From: Verrucomicrobiota bacterium | Lineage (GTDB): Bacteria; Verrucomicrobiota; Verrucomicrobiia; Chthoniobacterales; UBA10450 | Direction: 5' to 3' | Assembly (NCBI GenBank): GCA_046725285.1 | Contig: JBKOYG010000047.1 | Span: 1,024-65,023, forward strand | DNA: 64,000 nucleotides | In this document: piece by piece, positions 3,637-63,783 of the stretch | Position numbering within the stretch: the first letter of the stretch is position 1 | Layout: each line of letters begins with the position of its first letter | Notes under the pieces: generated by a model | The model's input: only the letters and a program-made list of their open reading frames with translations | Databases searched by the model: none | Told to the model about the DNA's origin: nothing | Program-made: the position numbers and the translations under genes

Positions 3637-5354
3637 TTGTGCAGGGGAAGCTGTCAGCATCATTGCTGCAACATTCCGGTAGAACGTTCTGTGAACTCAG
3701 CACGAAAACGACGACTGGTTTTATTTGTGGCTGGATTTTTCATTGGGGTAATGGCGTGCGCGGAAGAGGCCGATGTTCTTTTCACGAACGGCAATATTTA
3801 CACGGTTAACGATCGCCAGCTGCACGCTGAAGCCGTGGCGGTAAAAGGCGCCAGGATCGTTTTCGTTGGCTCAGATGAACACGCAAAGAAATTTCATGCA
3901 GGGAAGATTGTCGATCTTCACGGTCGCACCGTCGTGCCGGGCTTCACTGACTCGCATTGCCACATCTTCGGCATCGGCGAGCGCGAAATGCGATTGAACC
4001 TCGAAGGGACAGATTCACTTAAAGATTTTCTGGTTAGGGTGAAGGAGCGTGTCGACAAAACGGGCCCCAGTAAATGGATCACTGGACGGGGTTGGATCGA
4101 AACGTTTTGGAAACCGCCGCAATTTCCAACGTGTCATGACCTCGACAAGATCGCGCCAAACAATCCTGTATTTCTCACACGCGCGGATGGCCACGCCTCA
4201 GTTGCTAATTCGGCCGCGCTAAAAATCGCCAAAATCGATAAGAACACGCCGAATCCGTTTGGCGGACAAATTCTAAAAACCAACGGCGAGCCAAACGGGA
4301 TGCTGGTCGATAACGCACGAGGAACATCCCCAAACCCACTGAAGGCGAGCGCGGAGAGGCGTTGCTGCGCGGAATCGACCGCGAGATTAAGCTCGGCTGG
4401 TGCGAAATCCAGAACGCTGGCAGTCACAAACAAGATATCGACATTGTCCGGAAAGCATTCGACGCCGGCAAAATCAAAATTCGATTCGTCAACGCCGTCT
4501 ACGGTCCCGGTTGGGATGCACAGAATTTTTTGCGCGACGGACCTACGATTAACGCGTTCGATCATCATTTCACCCAGCGCACGGTCAAAGTGATCTTCGA
4601 CGGTGCGCTCGGCTCCCGCGGCGCGGCGCTCTTGAAGCCGTACAGCGATGCGCCCGAAACGTCTGGTTTTCTCACGGAAAAACCCGAAGACCTGCAGCCA
4701 ATGTTTGCTGAAGCGCTGCGCCGCGGCATCCACATTGAAACGCACGCGATCGGCGATCGCGCTAACCGATTGATCCTCGACCTCTACGAGCAGGCGTTTA
4801 AAGCCGTGCTGCCTGAGGATCGAAAAATTCGTGAACCGCGCTGGCGGATCGAGCACGCGCAAATTGTCGATCCAGGCGATATCCCCCGGTTTGCGAAACT
4901 TGCTGTCATCCCTTCGATGCAGCCGTCACACGCAATCAGCGATCTGTTTTTTGCGCCGCATCGACTTGGAATGGATCGCCTCGTCGGCGCGTATGCGTGG
5001 CAAAGCTTCATCAAGAGCGGCTGCATCATCGCCGGCGGGTACGATGCGCCGGTCGAGCGAGGCGAACCAATGATCGAATTCTACGCCGCCGTCGCACGCA
5101 AAAGCATCAAGGGCGAATCAGGCGAAGGCTGGCATCCCGAGCAAGCTGTCTCGCGTGAAGACGCGCTCAAAATGTTTACGATCTGGCCAGCTTACGCCGT
5201 GTTCGAAGAAAAGGATAAGGGCTCAATTGAAGTCGGCACACTTGCCGATTTCACGGTCCTGTCTCAAGACATCATGAAAATTCCCGAGATGGAAATTCTT
5301 GAAACACAGAACGAAATGACAGTGATTGGCGGTGAGATTATTTACCCGCACTGA
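3637..5354 (+). pseudogene. YtcJ-like metal-dependent amidohydrolase, split by a 1-nt frameshift near 4318-4322
   Basis: ORF 3637-4593 carries the N-terminal half (VPGFTDSHCHIFGIG ... GMLVDNA). ORF 4362-5354 carries the C-terminal half (IETHAIGDRA, RIEHAQIV, GGYDAPVE). Frame 3 already reads NIPKPTEGERGEALLRGID from 4323, directly after DNA in frame 1. A likely signal peptide follows the GTG at 3691. Confidence 0.7.
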
Positions 5355-55962: not shown

Positions 55963-56250
55963 CTACTTCGGCGGAACCGTTATCCAGCCGCCGACACCAA
56001 GCGCAGTCAGCACGATTTCCACTGCCAGCGAACAAAGGATGAGTCCCATTACACGGACAAGGACGGACGCGCCCTGCCGACCGATCACCCGCAGAATCGC
56101 ATCCGAAAAAAGCAGCAGGAGATAGGTCAGGAAGAGCACCACCAGAAGGACAACGCCAGTTTCGATCCGCTCCGGCACCGTATAAACATCGTTATCAGTT
56201 AAGACAATCACGGCCATCATCGCGCCCGGCCCGGCGATGACGGCCCGGCC
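55963..56250 (-). pseudogene. marC: marC (MarC/UPF0056 family) 3' fragment
   Basis: Reads ...AVIAGPGAMMAVIVLTDN...SVLVRVMGLILCSLAVEIVLTALG. There is no N-terminal half upstream, where a REP hairpin and hicBA follow instead. Confidence 0.7.
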
Positions 56251-56324: not shown

Positions 56325-56562
56325 TCAGCCGAAGAGCCGCTGAATCAATTCGTCGCGACTAATTTCAAAATGCGCGGCCGCGTCGCCAAGAATTCCGGCC
56401 AGCGTTCCCACTTTAAGTGGATCTGGGAATCGTGACATGATGCTGCCCGCGCTCAGTGGTCGTCAGCCGCAGATGGCTGCCGGTTTGCCGCGTGACTTCG
56501 TAGCCCAAGCGCCCCAGCCGTTTGGCAAGATCCGCTCCCGAAATGTCTCTCGGCAATTTCAT
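56325..56562 (-). pseudogene. hicA: hicA toxin gene, frameshifted
   Basis: My translation from the ATG at 56562 gives MKLPRDISGADLAKRLGRLGYEVTRQTGSHLRLTTTERGQHHVTIPRST*. The +1 frame continues PDPLKVGTLAGILGDAAAHFEISRDELIQRLFG* (stop at 56325). The shift lies near 56415-56425. Confidence 0.7.
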
Positions 56563-56592
56563 CTTACCAACGAGAGCGGTGTCAACTGGCAC

Positions 56593-56799
56593 TCAGCCCG
56601 CAAGCACTTCGTCGCGGACAAAATGCAAACGAATCACCTTCGGGGCGTTTCCCTCATCGAAATGGCAATTCACAGCATCGCGAACCTGTTGCCGAAGCGT
56701 GTCCAAAGTGTCCGCCTCGGTAAAGATCGACTCACCCAAGGCTCGCGCCGTAAAGCCGCCTTCCGCCGCATCCTCGATCAAGAAAATAATTTCGTTCAT
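56593..56799 (-). CDS. hicB: HicB-like antitoxin (HicB_lk_antitox type)
   Basis: MNEIIFLIEDAAEGGFTARALGESIFTEADTLDTLRQQVRDAVNCHFDEGNAPKVIRLHFVRDEVL. Confidence 0.75.
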   Translation of the reverse strand: MNEIIFLIEDAAEGGFTARALGESIFTEADTLDTLRQQVRDAVNCHFDEGNAPKVIRLHFVRDEVLAG

Positions 56800-56898
56800 G
56801 CGTTGCGGGCCAAAAGCGTGTTTCAATTACGCCGAGAGTCTCTGCGATTCGGAGTTCATTGGCAAGAATTGTCGCAGTCCGTTGATTACCGCGTCGAG

Positions 56899-56981
56899 AA
56901 TCGAGCTGAGGGGGTCAGCGAGATAGAAGGTAAAGTCGCGAGGGTAGCGACGAGCGAGCTGGGCAGCGAACGAGTTTCAAT
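56899..56981 (+). repeat. Structured repeat, single A-type unit (locus 1)
   Basis: AATCGAGC-[GCTGA ggggg TCAGC]-GAGATAGAAGGTAAA-[GTCGC gagggta GCGAC]-GAGCGAGCTGGGCAGCGAACGAGTTTCAAT. Abuts the truncated marC 5' fragment. Confidence 0.8.
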
Positions 56982-57173
56982 GACCTGGCCAGCGGTCATG
57001 GCGGCCACGAGGATGATGGCGGCGTAAATCACAGCACGCAGCGCCGTCAGATGCCGCTCTGACCGGGTAAGCGCAGCGGTCAGCCCGGCAAACAACGCTA
57101 CGTTGCCAATTGGATCAATCGTCTTCCAAAGCGTCGCAAAATCCTTGCTGATTTTAATTAACAGAGGCGACAT
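56982..57173 (-). pseudogene. marC: marC 5' fragment a (codons 1-64), truncated by the repeat
   Basis: MSPLLIKISKDFATLWKTIDPIGNVALFAGLTAALTRSERHLTALRAVIYAAIILVAAMTAGQVI, after which the track ORF continues into repeat-derived sequence. Confidence 0.7.
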
Positions 57174-57367
57174 GGGTAAATGTGCGCTGTCGTTTTAAAC
57201 AAACCGCAGATCAAAGGCGAGACAAAGCTATGCGCGGCCGTTCGCGGATGGAACGCGTGAAATGATTTCTTTGGATTCAACGCTTTAACGATTCAATTCG
57301 CCGCTGGACGAATTCGCCGTGGCGGACGCGTTAACGATTCACCGAATCAAACTACGACAGTGGTGCG

Positions 57368-57616
57368 AATCGAGCTGAGGGGTTCAGCGACATAGAACAC
57401 GTCGCGATCGGGTATCGCGCGGGTAGACGGCAGCGCAGCTAGGTAGCTGGCGCAAGCACGGGGCCGTGCGAGTGATCAACGTAAAAGTGACGAGGGTAGG
57501 AGCGAGTGAGCGTGGGCAGCAAACGAGTTTCAATGGAGCGAGTGGGATGAGCGACATAGAAGGCAAAGCTGCGAGGGTAGCAGCGAGTAAGCGTGGGCAG
57601 CGAGCGAGTTTCAAAT
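57368..57616 (+). repeat. Structured repeat array (locus 2): B unit, C block, degenerate A, full A
   Basis: The B unit has GCTGA-ggggt-TCAGC (57374-57388). The C block 57415-57485 is about 90% identical to 61024-61096. The last A unit has GCTGC-gagggta-GCAGC (57568-57584). It ends in GAGTTTCAAAT, fused to codon 12 of a second marC 5' end. Confidence 0.8.
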
Positions 57617-57819
57617 CTTTGCTAATCTTGATCAAAAGCGGAGACATATGCCGGAGCGTGCGTTTTATCCTGATACGAACGAAGGATCAAGCACGAGCAA
57701 AGTTGGCGGTGTGAAATGGGCCATTGCTGACCTCAAAGAGATTATCGAGTTTCTCGCGGAAGATATGACCGACGAACGGCTTGTCTCTACCTGCGCGACA
57801 CCGCTACAATTTGGTTTCG

Positions 57820-58074
57820 ATGGGCAGAGCCGAGAAACTCGCCGCGAAGATTCTCAGTGGAAAATCAGACAAAAATTTTGCCTTCAACGATCTTTGTTAC
57901 ATTCTTGAGCGCGCTGGGTTCCAGCTGCGTCCCGGAAGAGGAAGTCATCGGATTTATTACAAAGAGGGAGTCATCGAAATCGTCAACATTCAACCTCGCG
58001 ACGGAAAAGCGAAACCGTATCAAGTAAAACAGGTGCGCGAACTGCTTTTAAAGTATAAGATCGACATCGAATGA
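57820..58074 (+). CDS. hicA: HicA-family toxin (YcfA-like)
   Basis: MGRAEKLAAKILSGKSDKNFAFNDLCYILERAGFQLRPGRGSHRIYYKEGVIEIVNIQP. 4-nt overlap with the downstream hicB. Confidence 0.7.
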   Translation: MGRAEKLAAKILSGKSDKNFAFNDLCYILERAGFQLRPGRGSHRIYYKEGVIEIVNIQPRDGKAKPYQVKQVRELLLKYKIDIE

Positions 58075-58283
58075 CGACGCGTTACGAACTGATCATTTAT
58101 TGGAGCAAAGAGGACGACAGTTTTGTCGTCGAAGTCCCGGAGCTACCCGGCTGCATGGCCGACGGCAAAACTTACGCCGAAGCCGTGAAGAACGCCGAGC
58201 AAATTATCGACGAATGGATCGAAACCGCGCGTAAACTTGGGCGCCCGATTCCCGAGCCGCGCGGCAAGCTCGCCTACGCCTGA
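58071..58283 (+). CDS. hicB: HicB-family antitoxin (short form)
   Basis: YELIIYWSKEDDSFVVEVPELPGCMADGKTYAEAVKNAEQIIDEWIETARKLGRPIPEP. Confidence 0.75.
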   Translation: MTTRYELIIYWSKEDDSFVVEVPELPGCMADGKTYAEAVKNAEQIIDEWIETARKLGRPIPEPRGKLAYA

Positions 58284-58349
58284 GATCTGCGTTTCATCGC
58301 CGATCACTTATCACTTCTTTCCGACCAACGCTTCAACGACCCGCTCGCG

Positions 58350-58433
58350 AATGGAGCCGAGGGGACACGAGCGACATAGATGGGCAAACCCGCCTAAGGC
58401 AGGTCGAAATGCGCGGGAGCGCATGAGTCAAAG
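58350..58433 (+). repeat. Degenerate unit of the structured repeat (locus 3)
   Basis: AATGGAGCCGAGGGGACACGAGCGACATAGATGGGCAAA... ends in GAGTCAAAG. It retains the 5' half and an ATGCGC-ggga-GCGCAT hairpin. Confidence 0.55.
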
Positions 58434-58604
58434 CTTTCGGAGTCAACCCTCAACAATCAACTCTCAACCATCAACTGCTTTAATGAAGAGAGACATGTGT
58501 CAGAAATGTCGCTCTAGATTTATACGAACGGTCAATCAATCGCGAGGCAGGGTTCGCCTAATTCCTACTTCTTAATTGGTATTTTTTACTTCTGACTTTC
58601 TTCT

Positions 58605-58637
58605 GGCCGCGGTTTCTTCGGATACAGGAAACGTTAA
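58605..58637 (+). other. Relic copy (R3) of the 3' end, including the stop, of the gene ending at 47326
   Basis: GGCCGCGGTTTCTTCGGATACAGGAAACGTTAA encodes GRGFFGYRKR*, versus RGFFGYQKR* at 47300-47326. It shares 20 exact nt with R2 (50642-50661). Confidence 0.7.
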
Positions 58638-58876
58638 AACGCAGATCAGCAAGTTCGCCCTGCTGGATTAAGCCTTCCTCGTTTTCGTCGAATGAAGCCA
58701 TAGACCATGCAAGGTTTGGGATCACCAACTCGACCATTAGCAAAGTGACGATCGGGCCAAATTCGGTCGAAATGGTGCGAAACCCCTCATGCCAATGAGA
58801 GTTTAATACGTGAATTACGGGGATTAACTGGGATGCACGGAGGGCCTGTCTAACCTTGATAGAAGGGGAATCGCAA

Positions 58877-60253
58877 ATGCGCGCTCTCGGCGCGACAGCC
58901 TGTACAGCGCACCCCAAGGTCTTAAAAAATATTGCAGAGCAGCTCGAGGAGCACAACGTCCTCTCCACTCAAGAGCTGCAAATTGCGCGGCGCATGGGGA
59001 TCGTCGCGACTACCCCCGTCGGGCGAGCCGGCTTTAATGACGGACTTCTTTTTCCGTACGAGCTCTTGAGCGGTGGACTTGGTTCGGCCTCGACTATTCC
59101 AGAAGCGGCGCTCGCTCCAGTCGAGCCGAAGAGACCGGAAAAACGAAAGGTGCACGCCATTGCACTGCTGGTCGATTTTTCTGACAACCGGGGAATGCAG
59201 CGGACGACGGATTTTCAGAACCTCCTCTTTGGCAAAGGGAACCCGAATTCCATGGCGAATTTTTACCGACAACTTTCCTACGGCGCGTTGGAGCTGACCG
59301 GGGAAGTAATCGGCTACGTGCGCGCGCCTCAGCCTTACAGCTATTACACAGCAGCCGAAAGCGGCACTGGAACCACTTATCCGCAAAACACGCCTGGGCT
59401 GCTCCATGACGCGCTGACGATTTTTTGTCGGAATGATAACCTGGCGCGTTTTGACACGGACAATGACGGGTTTGTAGATGCGATTTTTCTGATCCATGCT
59501 GGCAGAGGTGCGGAGGCGGAACCAAATCCCACGAAGCGAAAAAACATGATCTGGTCGCATAAGTGGACCCTTCCGCAGCCGTTCGTAAATCAGGGAGTCA
59601 AAGTATTTGCCTACTCCACCGAACCGGAAGACGGGCGCGTCGGTGTTTTTTCGCACGAATTCGGTCACCTACTTGGATTGCCCGACCTCTACGACACGAC
59701 GTTTCGATCTCATGGAATCGGTGATTGGTGCCTGATGGCAGGCGGGTCTTGGGGAGGCGAAGGAAATCGTCCCGCGCGAATGTCGTGTTGGTGTCTCTCG
59801 AAACTCGGTTGGATCAAGCCGACGGTGGTTACCAGAAAAGAATCGATTCAACTCAACACGCTGGAAGAAAAAAAGACCGAGTGCTATCGACTTTGGACAA
59901 AAGGAGCAACCGGGCCAGAATATTTCCTTCTCGAGAATCGCCAGGCCAAAGGGCTCGACGCCGCGCTTGCCGGTTCAGGCCTTGCCGTCTGGCATATCGA
60001 CGAGCGGCAATCAAACAATGACAGTCCGCTCGCCTATCTCGTGGCACTCTTACAGGCGGATGGAAACAAGGATCTGGAACTACTCAAGAATTCAGGCGAC
60101 GGCGGGGATCTTTTCCCTGGCGATAAATGTGTCGCGGCGGTTGACGACAATACTACGCCATCAACACGAGCAAATACGGGGGCTCCTTCAGGCGTAGCGC
60201 TTACCAATATCGCAATGAGTGGAGGTATCATGACCTTACAGGCAGAGGTCTAG
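58877..60253 (+). CDS. M6-family (immune inhibitor A-like) zinc metalloprotease domain protein
   Basis: HEFGHLLGLPDLYD zinc motif, preceded by ALLVDFSD, FYRQLSYG and FLIHAGRGAE. No obvious signal peptide. Confidence 0.7.
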   Translation: MRALGATACTAHPKVLKNIAEQLEEHNVLSTQELQIARRMGIVATTPVGRAGFNDGLLFPYELLSGGLGSASTIPEAALAPVEPKRPEKRKVHAIALLVDFSDNRGMQRTTDFQNLLFGKGNPNSMANFYRQLSYGALELTGEVIGYVRAPQPYSYYTAAESGTGTTYPQNTPGLLHDALTIFCRNDNLARFDTDNDGFVDAIFLIHAGRGAEAEPNPTKRKNMIWSHKWTLPQPFVNQGVKVFAYSTEPEDGRVGVFSHEFGHLLGLPDLYDTTFRSHGIGDWCLMAGGSWGGEGNRPARMSCWCLSKLGWIKPTVVTRKESIQLNTLEEKKTECYRLWTKGATGPEYFLLENRQAKGLDAALAGSGLAVWHIDERQSNNDSPLAYLVALLQADGNKDLELLKNSGDGGDLFPGDKCVAAVDDNTTPSTRANTGAPSGVALTNIAMSGGIMTLQAEV

Positions 60254-60260
60254 CTCCCAA

Positions 60261-60551
60261 TCAAGCCTGATCGGACAGGGGATCGAGTTGTTCGAGAACC
60301 GTACGCTCGCCGAACGGACCAGCCAGTAATCGCGCTTGCACACGAACGCGATCGCCTATCGTCACATCTGGCGCTTGGGCCGCAAATAGAATTAGGGACT
60401 GCCCCTCTGCGGGCTGGATAAAGTCGTCACTTCGGCCACGCGAGAGATTACGATACACTTCGATTTCGATCTCGTGTCCTTGACCCTCGCTTGCTGGCAC
60501 GATCGCTCGAACAGTGCCTTCAACCACCGTCTTATTTGGCTTCGCCAGCAT
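60261..60551 (-). CDS. Small hypothetical protein convergent with the M6 protease gene
   Basis: Clean ORF (the track gives 60261-60635; the ATG at 60551 gives 96 aa). No domain recognised. Confidence 0.35.
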   Translation of the reverse strand: MLAKPNKTVVEGTVRAIVPASEGQGHEIEIEVYRNLSRGRSDDFIQPAEGQSLILFAAQAPDVTIGDRVRVQARLLAGPFGERTVLEQLDPLSDQA

Positions 60552-60761
60552 ATTCAAAGCTAATCGCCCGCCCCTATGAACGTGACCGCGATACGCAAGC
60601 GATAAAAATTGCCGCTCACGGGCCGAGAATGACAAAGATCACATAAAGAGCGAGCTTTTATTCGCACGTCAACCCGGTTTGGTGGCAGCGCTCACCAGTA
60701 TCCCTTTCCCCTTACTTTCTACGGAAACAGCCAGGCGAAGTTTCGAAACCTCAATTTTTTT

Positions 60762-60818
60762 CAGAAAACGACCGGCCACTTTGAGCGAGTGCATGTGAAT
60801 GCCGATCGCGTCGAGAAT
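60762..60818 (-). pseudogene. marC: marC internal fragment
   Basis: The minus strand reads ILDAIGIHMHSLKVAGRFL. This matches the MarC region that follows GQ(L/V)(V/I) (E. coli ...[23 protein letters not shown]), i.e. the expected continuation of fragment a. It starts exactly at the end of repeat locus 4. Confidence 0.55.
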
Positions 60819-61110
60819 GGAGCAACTGGGGGGAGCGACATAGAAGGTAAAGTCGCGAGGGTAGCGACGAGCGAGCTGGGCAGCGAGCGAGTTTCAATGG
60901 AGCTGACGGGTTCAGCGACATAGAACACGTCACGATCAAGGGAATGGAGCTTTGGGGAAAGCGACATAGAAGGCAAAGCCGCAATGGGTAGCGGCGAGTG
61001 AAGTGGGAAGCGAACGAGTTTCAATCGCGCGGGTAGACTGCAACGCTGCTAGGGTAGCTGGCGCGAGCACGGGGTCGTGCGAGTGATCAACGTAAAGGAG
61101 CGAGTGCAGA
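60816..61110 (+). repeat. Structured repeat array (locus 4): A, B, A', C block
   Basis: A has GTCGC-gagggta-GCGAC (60852-60868). B has GCTGA-cgggt-TCAGC (60902-60916). A' has GCTTT-gggg-AAAGC (60949-60962) and GCCGC-aatgggta-GCGGC (60978-60995). C block at 61024-61096. Lies 56 nt from the stop of the nuclease-ATPase gene. Confidence 0.8.
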
Positions 61111-61165
61111 CGTGGACTACTTTGTGCTCACGGTGTAGCTGCACATACTTAGCGCATTCGTAGAC

Positions 61166-63609
61166 TTATACCCGCCGGCTTCTGGCGACGTTAGCTGCTG
61201 CACTTTGTTCAACCTTATCACATTCAGACAAACCCCTTGTGATTACGTTTTGGCACATCTGTTTCCCCTCTGCATCTGAGAGGTCATTGACACAAGTTCG
61301 TAAGTAATTCAGGAAGGCTCGAGTCCTAGCCAGTCTCTCGTCCAGAAGGGTCGTCTCAACAATTTTCGGCCGGACCGACGCATCCGTGATTGGCGTGTCG
61401 ATGCACATTGCATCCAAGTATTGAAACTCGGTGACCAAATTGTTGATATGGTAAGATCCGCGGGTAGTGATTCGAAGCGTGGACACCTTCATCTCGTCCT
61501 GAGTTACCGCAGAACTTGTTTCTAACGAGCCGTTTTCGACCAGAGTAGTTAGGTGCCTCTGGATTGTAGCAACGTCAAAGTAAAAAGACTCGAGATAAGA
61601 AGCGACAGCCATGTATGTGACCCAGTTGCCGGTCTCATGCTGATCGTGGAATCGGCTGAGATATTCAAGCATCAAAAGTCGAATGAAATGCTCCTTTGGG
61701 TCGGCATGGTAGATGTCGAAAAGATTAACAAAGATCGAAAACTTAGGGTCATACTGATCGTAGTCACCGTACAAAAGTGTTTTTACGGCTTCGAAGCTCG
61801 GCAGAAAATACGTGCCTGACTCTTTTATTTTGCCGAGTATTTTGCCCGTATCCAGATGGCCGCTTGTTAAAACGCGTTTCGTCAAATCGAGTAGCGTGCG
61901 GACGTTCCCGTTCGATATCGCCGCTAACATGTGGATAGCACTTGTATCTTTGCGAGCTGAAAATTCACAGCATGCGAAAATCTTAGCTACACTCGGAAGT
62001 CGAAAAGAAATATCCTTGTTCTTCATGGCGTCCTGAAGGACAGGCGTGTCGATTTCGCCAAGCGCAAGCTTTTGCGCAAACTTAAACCTTCGCTTAAGGA
62101 CAAGTGGCAGATCGGGAGAACCAATCGTGAACGTCTTCGGTGCAATTGAATCGAGAACGCCGCTGCGGAAAGACAGATAAAATGTTGTCGGCCTTAAACA
62201 AATGAACACCACGCACTCCCAATCGCGTGCAATCGCGGACGCCTTGAGAAAGGCTGCTTCTTGAATCGCGGGGTCGCGGCGATCTAAATTATCGAAAAAA
62301 CAGCAATCGAGCGTCCACGTCCGCGCTTCAGGTGTCGAATAACTGCTTGGTAATAGCTGTGACGATCCTTTAAGTGTTCCTGAATAAATGCCTTCTCCTC
62401 CTGTTTCGTTGCAGTGAGGTCGTCGCCATGAAGCTTGTACCTGGAACTACGATGAAATCGCTCAATTTGCGAATGAAGTGCGCCACGGACGATTGAGTCT
62501 TCGAGAATATCGATGTTGTGACGGTCGAGCAATTGAGCCTCAAGCTGGGCATATATAAAATCATTTACCTCCGCTGCGCTGTCGGGACGATCGAGGAAGT
62601 TTGCTTCGAGCTGTATGTAGCTCGACAGCGTGTCGCTTGCACCGACTAACCGGAGGTAATTCAAAAATGTCGTCTTACCTTGACCAACATCCCCTAGCAA
62701 GATAAAGGGCTTTTCGTTATCGTAGCCGATGATCGTGTTCGTTACCTGCCCTGTGTCGGCGCTCATCACATTTCTGGTCACAAGTTGGTCTGCCGCCGAG
62801 CGACGGCGTAACATATCCTTAGCGAATGCAATCAGGTGCTCGTTCGCTTGTGGAGACACATAGCATTTTTCCAAAAACAGAAGAGTATTCTCGGTCCGCG
62901 ACAGGATATCCCAGACTGTTTGTAGAATGTAAGAGAGTTCATTTATGAATCGGTTGCGCTCAGAAGTGATGGGATACCCGGGAATGCTCAAGCTGAGCTT
63001 TGCTGGTGCCGGCTTCTTTCGGCTCTCCATCAGCAGTGGATAAATCTCATTTGCTGCTACCGCAGTTTTGCTGAAGCACATCCAGTAACGACGGAAGTTG
63101 TCGCGAATCCTTGACAATGAGTCGAAGACGATGACCTCGCGTTCCTCGATGTTTTGTGATTGGACATATGTCAAAGCGATAATCCATTGATGTCCGTTTG
63201 AGATCGCTATGTACCGCGCTCCTAGTGACGCGGCGTAACCAAGCGCTTGCCGAAGTGCGGCACCTGATTCGGGTGTTTCTTTCTCAAGAAGGGCGAACGC
63301 GACTGGTTCTGGATCGAACACTATCTCCTGCACAACGAAGGAGATGTCCGCGCGCTTCGCTTCAACAACTAATGCAATGCTATTTGCAACGGAAAAGACG
63401 TAATCAGCGTATCCCACCGCTCGGCAATAGTGCTCTGCATCGACGTCAGTTTTTTCCCAATCCAACACGTCGAACAGCAAGACGTCCAATACTTTCAGTC
63501 GCGTGTCTGCTTCGTTAGCGCGATTCGACACTGCTGTTAGTTCGTCAAAACGATTCTGTAACTCTGCGAACGCAGCTTCGGGCGTCCAAGGAATAGTCCG
63601 AACAAGCAT
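61166..63609 (-). pseudogene. PD-(D/E)xK (HsdR-N/Mrr-like) nuclease domain + ORC/Cdc6-like AAA+ ATPase + winged-helix protein, interrupted by a frameshift in an A6/T6 run
   Basis: Nuclease motifs NEADTRLKVLDVLL...YADYVF...ALVVEAKR...YIAISNGHQW. Walker A LLGDVGQGKTTF. With one extra T at 62295-62300 the reading continues SIAVFFDNLDRRDPAIQEAAFLKASAIARDWECVVFICLRPTTF, which gives a Walker B and joins track ORFs 62284-63714 and 61166-62212. Sensor-2-like NGNVRTLLDL. Confidence 0.7.
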
Positions 63610-63783
63610 GGCTGCAATCGTACAGCCCAAGGGGCTCAACGAAAGTTTTTTCCTTCTCGTAAGTGTAACAGCATTTTCAGCTAAGAACCGCTGGAATCTG
63701 CACCGCTGTCGCAACCTCAGTGAAATTGCGTGTCGCAGCCGCCTTCATTCGGAACTGCCGGTGTTCGGGTGCAATCGACATAA

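Follow-up and report, generated by a model that had tools for sequence, protein, structure and literature searches.

What are the short structured repeats that crowd a few kilobases near the end of this stretch, and do they move? The stretch, called the window below, comprises 64,000 nucleotides (nt) of a Verrucomicrobiota bacterium of the Chthoniobacterales (assembly GCA_046725285.1, contig JBKOYG010000047.1, positions 1,024 to 65,023 of the forward strand). A preliminary description, made from the letters of the sequence, had reported related repeat units at several places in the window, all in one orientation. A direct-repeat search and a covariance model, the latter built from 137 units and run over the whole window with its filters off, confirm this: all units lie on the + strand and are confined to 56899-61110, and in the rest of the 64 kb there is no covariance-model match better than E = 0.5. 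The window holds four full units (A units), one 3' half of an A unit, two 5' modules (B), one unit of a second type (D) and two internal blocks (C), the B and C parts belonging to longer variants that we call long forms. We think it rather probable that these units represent an undescribed superfamily of ~80-nt non-autonomous mobile elements in soil Verrucomicrobiota (Chthoniobacterales / Ca. Udaeobacter), moved in single-stranded form.

Distribution of the family and precise insertion of the unit

The 19-nt core of the A unit, AGCGASATAGAAGGYAAAG, occurs four times in the window, where 0.01 occurrences would be expected by chance. This core pattern was searched in a species-representative genome collection and was found, as a lower bound, in more than 120 stretches of public genomes. 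The 120 8-kb loci that were fetched (labelled L and a number) make up, with the window, the ~0.96 Mb on which the comparisons below are based. In this set nhmmer identified 206 units; full A units come from 60 assemblies, nearly all of them metagenome-assembled genomes (MAGs) of Chthoniobacterales / Ca. Udaeobacter from soil, and among the matches listed nearly all were soil MAGs labelled Verrucomicrobiae, Spartobacteria, Chthoniobacterales or Ca. Udaeobacter. Thus the units are not peculiar to this contig; the family is widespread in related genomes. Matches to the 19-mer in Pluralibacter, Flavisolibacter, Treponema and one viral contig were set aside as chance, as the covariance model gives no match there. 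The family also seems to have escaped description, as had been surmised from the consensus: with Rfam models the whole 64 kb gave nothing at the gathering score, nor did 56700-61300 at E<=1, phage and plasmid collections held no match to the unit, and the searchable literature, queried by sequence string and by Udaeobacter, contained no description, the topic of Chthoniobacter and repetitive extragenic palindromic (REP) sequences yielding REP background only (PMC3733652). A scan for tRNA and tmRNA genes found none. Some contigs with genuine units are binned as Acidobacteriota, Limnocylindria or Pyrinomonadaceae (L013 and L065, also L019, L020, L089 and L111). The flanks of L013 and L065 are orthologous to those of the Verrucomicrobiae contig L063, so these two contigs are probably binning errors.

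The flanks of each unit were joined and searched against the 120 loci and the window, and the places where they matched contiguously were aligned, giving pairs of filled and empty sites. At least 12 clean pairs were obtained in this way, with a gap of 80-82 nt (mostly 80) and AA(W) on both sides. The inserted DNA is the unit alone. Locus L105 is filled relative to its own paralogue and to L030, L052 relative to its own paralogue, L063 and L065 relative to L013, L098 and L037 relative to L088, and L064 relative to L044. In L017 a unit lies 3 nt upstream of the marC ATG, at a site that is empty in the window, and within ~100 bp upstream of one helicase gene there are three different insertion points in loci from different species (L006, L033, L050, L097). 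Nested pairs were also found, in which an A unit sits within D-type units (L051, L096, L007) or within the long form (L043, L108). Insertion beside and inside other copies results in mosaics and in head-to-tail arrays, which have a period of 79-81 nt (L005, L060, L080, L117 and the window). Comparing syntenic loci for presence and absence, as the preliminary description had proposed, therefore gives substance to its likeness of a nest of non-autonomous mobile elements: the 80-82-nt differences are precise, units are nested, and they insert in tandem into themselves.

All pairs have G^AA(A/T) at the empty site and G^AAT-GGAGC...GAGTTTC^AA(A/T) at the filled one, the caret marking the junction. 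A G stands before the unit in 83% of 131 non-tandem left flanks, and in 95-98% of right flanks the core is followed by AA. The form N^AAW is found at every junction, that is, at the left end, the right end, the target and the tandem joint GAGTTTC^AATGGAGC. The apparent target duplication is at most 2-3 nt, and the AA may belong to the element or be a duplication of 2 nt. In several pairs, among them those of L105 and L098, the third junction base is not the same left and right of the unit. We prefer the reading in which an 80-nt element, AATGGAGC...GAGTTTC, has gone in between G and AA, as A2 and T3 are paired with T30 and A29 in the first hairpin (see below).

Many units are enclosed by arrays of 7-10-nt repeats (CACAGAT / ATCTGTG, GAATTCGTG, GAAGTAAG, TCAAC), which form a separate repeat class and appear as long imperfect palindromes in intergenic DNA (L074 at ~4100-4300, L037 at 1250-1400, L020, L042, and 58440-58480 of the window). 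The GTG^AA and ATG^AA steps of these arrays are preferred targets of the units; an empty paralogue, GTGTGAATTCGTGAAATTCGTGTCTGC, is found in L037.

A fold conserved on the + strand only

The A consensus, from 137 distinct units, is AATGGAGC-nn-ATGGGAT-nn-AGCGACATAGAAGGTAAAG-CCGCG-AGGGTA-GCGGC-GAGCGAG-nnn-GGGA-nGC-GAGCGAGTTTCAA. The unit runs from AATGGAGC to GAGTTTC, and its G-rich strand folds into three hairpins, of which H1 covers nt 2-30, H2 is central, and H3 lies near the 3' end, stopping ~10 nt before it. The hairpins are linked by a near-invariant single strand, ACATAGAAGGYAAAG, and each is capped by a G-rich loop of the GGGA/GGGTA type (TGGGA, GAGGGTA, GGGA/GGGC) and stiffened by tandem G·A pairs; we take the GGGA loop to fit the GNRA pattern known from RNA structure. 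Terminal inverted repeats are poor: by inspection, AATGGAGCT and the reverse complement of the 3' end ATTGAAACT match at 6/9 positions.

In the alignment, 84.9% of the cells of the three-hairpin structure are paired, compared with 73.7% after column shuffling, a value that none of 500 shuffles equalled. Cells in which both partners have changed number 265, against 99 expected, and when the 3' partners were slid by 1-3 columns only 16-44% remained paired. The changes are of several kinds. In H1, G4:C28 is replaced by C4:G28 in 18 units, with 3 exceptions; H2 has at least 8 Watson-Crick stem variants; and C64:G82 alternates with T:A. The alternatives in H1 and H2 that are not Watson-Crick pairs are mostly tandem G·A pairs: columns 10/23 of H1 are GA in 63 units and columns 11/22 AG in 55, and in H2 columns 44/58 are GA in 22 units and columns 45/57 AG in 23. 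Tandem G·A pairs are near-invariant at columns 5/27 and 6/26 and at 65/81 and 66/80, and G·T cells outnumber A·C cells by 109 to 67. Because tandem G·A and G·T pairs form on the + strand only, the structure is under selection on one strand. These results show that the fold exists and is conserved on the + strand only. Folding with RNA parameters gives -20.2 kcal/mol for the + strand (z = -1.4) and -11.8 kcal/mol for the - strand (z = -0.4).

Two points of the preliminary description concerned reading frames. It had taken the long minus-strand open reading frames (ORFs) across the units for by-products of the repetition, and here we agree, as units are 81 to 86 nt long and the length of the insert is not divisible by 3. 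It had also reported stops on the plus strand; this has to be corrected, as that strand is not closed in all frames and its frame 0 is open in 101/137 units (NGAxGMSDIEGKxxRVxASExGQRASF), owing to the G/A-rich composition. Consequently, ORF callers extend genes through units. Spurious N-terminal extensions or repeat proteins may be seen, for example, at 1666-3150 of L031, 3437-5350 of L113 and 56437-57027 (+) of the window.

How the unit may move, and rival explanations

Each copy would be recognised and mobilised as single-stranded nucleic acid by an enzyme whose gene lies elsewhere in the genome. As to the identity of this enzyme, we can offer only a tentative guess, an HUH-type single-strand DNA transposase with an IS200/IS605-like reaction; it is suggested by the fact that 80 nt cannot circularise as a duplex, by the absence of inverted ends, by the presence of one-strand hairpins near both ends, and by a tiny cleavage motif that is recreated by the element's own right junction. 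The 3' end of each copy (C^AAT) would recreate the target, which would explain tandem growth. The unit resembles the palindrome-associated transposable elements (PATEs) of IS200/IS605 in its one-strand hairpins near both ends, its lack of terminal inverted repeats, its absent or ambiguous 2-3-nt target duplication, its very short conserved insertion motif, a right end that resembles the target, and a size that fits only a single-stranded intermediate. Unlike PATEs, it has an N^AAW target shorter than the usual 4-5 nt, a third, central hairpin, a long invariant linker and, with the weak proxy offered by 8-kb loci, no replication-strand bias; moreover, no cognate autonomous relative with the same ends and a tnpA (Y1) or tnpB gene was found in the window or the 120 loci. 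Of the REPIN/PATE-like origin suggested in the preliminary description, we thus keep a PATE-like mechanism as our best guess. The part that invoked REPINs and REP-associated tyrosine transposases (RAYTs) does not hold on architecture, and the RAYT-like genes found go with other repeats. Orphan 5' and 3' modules, which could have been the ends of an autonomous element, proved to be truncated units, long forms or rearrangements (e.g. L035).

Several results weigh against this explanation. When DNA parameters are used the fold is weak (z = -0.26), and this goes for both strands; the structural vocabulary, tandem G·A pairs with GNRA-like GGGA loops, is one typical of RNA. Because an exact 19-mer served to find the loci, the core looks more conserved than it is. 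Identity between copies is 80% within one genome and 78% across assemblies, and only 19/110 units have their nearest relative in the same assembly. Since diversity within genomes is about that between genomes, the subfamilies are old and common to several species, and copy diversity of this kind, unlike that of a recent burst from one master, hints at long-term constraint, subject to the ascertainment just named. A transposon that uses the lagging-strand template is expected to show a replication-linked orientation bias; no bias was seen relative to local GC skew (78 vs 78) or to the coding strand (79 vs 79), 8-kb blocks being a weak proxy for replichores. None of the units has a transposase, an integrase or a reverse transcriptase linked to it, although reverse transcriptases were not searched for exhaustively. 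Among 148 neighbouring genes, assigned to 105 Pfam families, no mobile-element family has two or more members and the genes are ordinary housekeeping ones, and clustering of 778 neighbouring proteins returned only orthologous housekeeping genes, the helicase being the commonest (16 loci). Finally, tblastn with IS200, IS608 and E. coli RAYT queries, followed by phmmer with the matches, identified only three Y1/RAYT-like genes in the 0.96 Mb, none of them flanked by units.

Some of these results speak for a unit that is primarily a structured RNA, either a small or cis-acting module (for instance a GGGA-loop decoy) or a retroelement spread through cDNA in the manner of a short interspersed nuclear element (SINE). 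We consider this unlikely, and the tandem structured small RNAs named in the preliminary description likewise keep some probability at the RNA level. Much of the evidence would suit an RNA: the covarying hairpins with tandem G·A pairs, GNRA-like GGGA loops and G·U pairs are found on one strand only; the fold beats shuffles and the opposite strand with RNA parameters and does not with DNA parameters; the single-stranded linker is strongly conserved over 60 assemblies; and diversity within genomes equals that between them. On the other hand, units were oriented like the flanking gene in 111 cases and opposite to it in 83, a mild excess obtained with crude gene calling; there is no clear gene-orientation bias, which speaks against a cis-regulatory RNA. 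The 80 nt contain no promoter or terminator of their own and the flanks are variable; some copies interrupt a coding gene or one another; Rfam has no match even at the relaxed threshold; and no reverse transcriptase was seen near the units in that non-exhaustive search. Insertions are precise and of fixed length, without poly-A or variable target duplications, unlike target-primed retroposition. A further variant, to which we assign a distinctly low probability, is an RNA-first element copied into DNA at N^AAW, or else one moved by a class of recombinase so far unconnected with miniature elements; either way a host function would keep the sequence constant over at least 60 species. If true, the RNA-first reading would make the unit the first SINE-like retro-mobile small RNA of bacteria.

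Returning to a mobile element moved in single-stranded form, we asked how it compares with the established families of small bacterial repeats. A REP consists of one imperfect palindrome of 20-40 nt, at one end of which stands an unpaired GTAG (or CGTC) tag, and REPs form head-to-head or tail-to-tail dimers, head-to-tail ones being negligible (PMC3733652). With REPs, bacterial interspersed mosaic elements (BIMEs) and REPINs the unit has in common that it is an abundant, short, structured extragenic repeat with mosaic clusters, covarying stems and a GTAG motif. That the units are such sequences, kept and moved by a RAYT (Y1) transposase, is nevertheless very unlikely. The hairpins are strand-specific, GTAG occurs in the GGGTAGC of H2 and in the C block, and RAYT-like genes do exist in these genomes; but the unit is 80-84 nt long with three hairpins in place of a single palindrome with an unpaired tag, it has GTAG only inside the H2 loop and stem, and its arrays are head-to-tail, unlike REP dimers (PMC3733652). 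Of the three RAYT-like genes, those of L077 and L047 carry a different repeat and that of L098 has no unit next to it. The former two (L077 2439-3070 and L047 4029-4682) each lie between direct copies of their own repeat (e.g. TTGTAGCCGCCTCGCCCTGTCGAGGCG), a different, REP-like family of the same genome group.

The BOX elements of Streptococcus pneumoniae (boxA-boxB(n)-boxC) are similar in plan, with a common 5' module, interchangeable middles, a 3' module, variable module copy number, predicted stable folding and no known transposase; they differ in that they belong to another phylum and have no sequence relation to the unit, for which precise single-unit insertions with defined junctions are documented. 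MITEs (miniature inverted-repeat transposable elements) such as Correia/NEMIS, RUP and ERIC are likewise non-autonomous, ~100 nt long, mainly intergenic and polymorphic for presence, and they can alter neighbouring genes. They carry clear terminal inverted repeats, of about 10 bp or more in the DDE type, and duplicate a target of fixed length (often TA), whereas the unit has ends that match at 6/9 positions and an AA(W) junction.

A cassette array, or an array of recombination sites, was another suggestion of the preliminary description. We find it highly improbable that an integron-like or pdif-like system uses the units as its recombination sites and so shuffles hicAB and other small blocks. 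Like integron attC sites, the unit folds in a strand-specific manner with structure conserved above stem sequence, and in the window the units are co-oriented and stand between small gene blocks that include toxin-antitoxin pairs; in L102 these blocks are reordered, and the hicAB pair of 57781-58283 is absent. However, attC sites go with a linked intI gene, are confined to the joints between cassettes and do not move by themselves, whereas the unit moves alone, having been inserted at the 12 or more sites above in housekeeping intergenic DNA, where it is dispersed singly. Units in other loci point both ways, and the window has cassettes on either strand. R/L boxes (RYYYAAC ... GTTRRRY) are absent from both strands of the consensus, there are three hairpins and not one, and among the 30 window ORFs scanned there is no IntI or other integrase and no transposase. 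Lastly, we give practically no credence to the units being remnants of a repetitive coding gene (27-residue repeats) or in-frame inserts of the Rickettsia-palindromic kind: frame 0 is open as noted above, 53% of delimited unit lengths are multiples of 3 and third-position variability of that frame is slightly higher (0.69 vs 0.47-0.50 bits), but this is ruled out by inserts of 80-82 nt, mostly 80, with tandem periods of 79-81 nt, by the presence of units in either orientation in intergenic DNA, and by covariation of paired columns, which accounts for the variation, the open frames following from G/A-rich composition.

The family behaves like bacterial interspersed repeats of the REP, PATE, BOX and MITE kinds but is set apart from REP/RAYT by size, hairpins and arrays, from DDE-type MITEs by the lack of inverted repeats, and from attC sites. 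Ca. Udaeobacter and related bacteria are uncultured and count among the most abundant in soil; to our knowledge no repeat family has been described in them. As a marker the element is ready for use in strain typing and in spotting contig breaks or mis-binning in soil metagenomes, and it could also flag contamination; it inflates ORF calls through its open frame and disrupts genes, such as the marC of the window. With a one-strand fold, N^AAW junctions and no linked transposase, it offers a clean case for finding a mobilising enzyme, and it could serve to decide between single-stranded DNA and RNA as the form in which small bacterial repeats move.

Modules, marC fragments and neighbouring genes in the window

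The types of the superfamily have a 5' module in common (H1 plus GACAT) and differ in their middles and 3' ends:

A type: 3' end GAGTTTCAA
D type: middle ATAGATGGGC..., ending GAGTCAA
Third type: ATGGCCGG ... GAGATACAA
Long form: ~85 nt (including the C block) in place of the GGY of the A core

Long forms measure ~165-250 nt. Empty ones are found in L054, L011, L023, L084, L086 and L025, and ones with an A unit nested inside, as in the window, in L038, L052, L043, L099 and L108. Some A units carry a ~30-nt element (CCGCCTACGCC...GGCGCGGCAGG) in their invariant core, between GCGAC and ATAGAA (L005 671-788, L023 4154-4260), which adds a further layer of nesting. The units of the window are as follows:

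56899 to 56981, + strand: A unit A1 (covariance model 100.3 bits; repeat families D1 and D4)
57368 to 57413, + strand: B1, 5' module of a long form, hairpin H1 plus GACATAGAA (covariance model 22 bits)
57414 to 57485, + strand: C1, ~72-nt internal block of the long form with its own G-loop hairpins (repeat families D8/D9)
57486 (or about 57484) to 57534, + strand: A', 3' half (H2, H3, GAGTTTCAAT) that closes the long form (repeat family D5)
57532 to 57615, + strand: A unit A2, head-to-tail with the long form (103.1 bits)
58350 to 58432, + strand: D-type unit with the common 5' module, a different middle and the end GAGTCAAAG (28.2 bits, E = 1.3e-5)
60816 to 60898, + strand: A unit A3, whose 5' flank is antisense of marC codons 65-80 (102 bits)
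60896 to 60941, + strand: B2, 5' module of a second long form (covariance model 16 bits)
60943 to 61025, + strand: A unit A4, lying within the long form with B2 on one side and C2 on the other (89 bits)
61024 to 61110, + strand: C2 block (61024-61096) and truncated remainder of the long form (repeat families D8 and D9)

The B units and the C block of the preliminary description are therefore real, but they are not separately joined modules: B + C + A' (57368-57534) make up one long form, and 60896-61110 is a second one with A4 nested inside, as a comparison of filled and empty sites with 57368-57474 of the window and with L054 demonstrates. The covariance model also matches 57451-57531, over the A' region (43.6 bits, model positions 2-81). 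The two C blocks, 57414-57485 and 61024-61096, are 90-95% identical (direct-repeat search, D8 and D9), and the C1 block is kept in L054, L038, L052 and L043. The D-type unit is empty in the window; in L051, L084, L096 and L007 an A unit is nested within it.

Three of the A units adjoin pieces of a marC gene, which lie in the window with two hic blocks as follows:

55963 to 56238, - strand: marC 3' remnant, about codons 120-204 (tblastn)
56413 to 56826, - strand: hicA and a putative hicB partner (Pfam HicA_toxin; the partner has no Pfam match)
56979 to 57173, - strand: marC 5' fragment, codons 1-65, running into A1 (Pfam MarC, E = 1.8e-11; tblastn, 83% identity to the intact marC of L017)
57612 to 57647, - strand: second marC start, 12 codons (differs from the first at 8/11 codons, all synonymous)
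57781 to 58283, + strand: hicA-hicB pair, between A2 and the D-type unit (Pfam HicA_toxin and HicB_lk_antitox)
60771 to 60818, - strand: marC middle fragment, codons 65-80 (tblastn, 94% identity; 96-98% DNA identity to L017, L021 and L094)

A1 sits in marC between codons 65 and 66, with antisense junctions CGCGTCGAG^AAT ... TTTCAAT^GACCTGGCC, and the same junction is present in L021, L094 and L097. The 3' end of A2 abuts the 12-codon marC start (tblastn match MSPLLIKISKDL at 57647..57612), and A3 adjoins the fragment of codons 65-80 (tblastn match ILDAIGIHMHSLKVAG at 60818..60771), 3.6 kb from the 5' fragment. The middle of the gene being missing, marC is a pseudogene in the window. Relatives have an intact marC of 210 residues (L017, L094) or a near-complete one (L021, L097). 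The junction of the unit's 3' end with the antisense of GQVI is identical in the window, L021, L094 and L097; the 5' junction varies. Thus L097 (2130-2950) has the order marC(1-65)-unit-marC(34-210) and L021 (1-970) the order marC(..65)-unit-marC(66-69)-upstream-marC(1-210). Long marC duplications flank the unit in both loci, and in L021 the 5' fragment and the unit lie upstream of an intact marC. Three copies of the start of marC, with the sequence upstream of it, occur in the window (57173, 57647 and 58496, all on the - strand), the third (58496, MSLFIKAVDG and a stop) being decayed. As the first two starts differ only synonymously and the second most resembles the start and upstream stretch of marC in L021 and L102, DNA of a second allele must have entered the locus.

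The arrangement would be accounted for by one old insertion at marC codon 65, followed by repeated unit-associated duplication and recombination; candidate processes are homologous exchange between units, microhomology at GAGCGA and an enzyme-driven reaction. On this view, further copies, recombination (between units or at microhomologies) and the second-allele DNA broke marC into pieces and reordered the neighbouring hicAB, M6-peptidase and other blocks. The hicBA block at 56413..56826 lies between A1 and the marC 3' remnant and is 83% identical to 1-478 of L102, where the order is different. That short contig carries hicBA, the end of the M6 peptidase, a small ORF, units and marC starts in an order unlike that of the window. 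We regard hicAB, hicBA and the M6 peptidase as passengers of a rearrangement hot spot and not as cassettes of a dedicated system.

The window is otherwise made up of housekeeping genes, among them those for arginyl-tRNA synthetase, a PBP1-type transglycosylase/transpeptidase and 2-oxoacid:ferredoxin oxidoreductase. Two adjacent ORFs of 348 and 476 aa (61166-63714, - strand) adjoin the unit array and match nothing in Pfam or PADLOC. By eye, the 476-aa ORF has a P-loop (GDVGQGKT) as well as an N-terminal EADTR...VEAK motif like that of restriction-endonuclease N-domains, and the two may be an undescribed defence-type pair.

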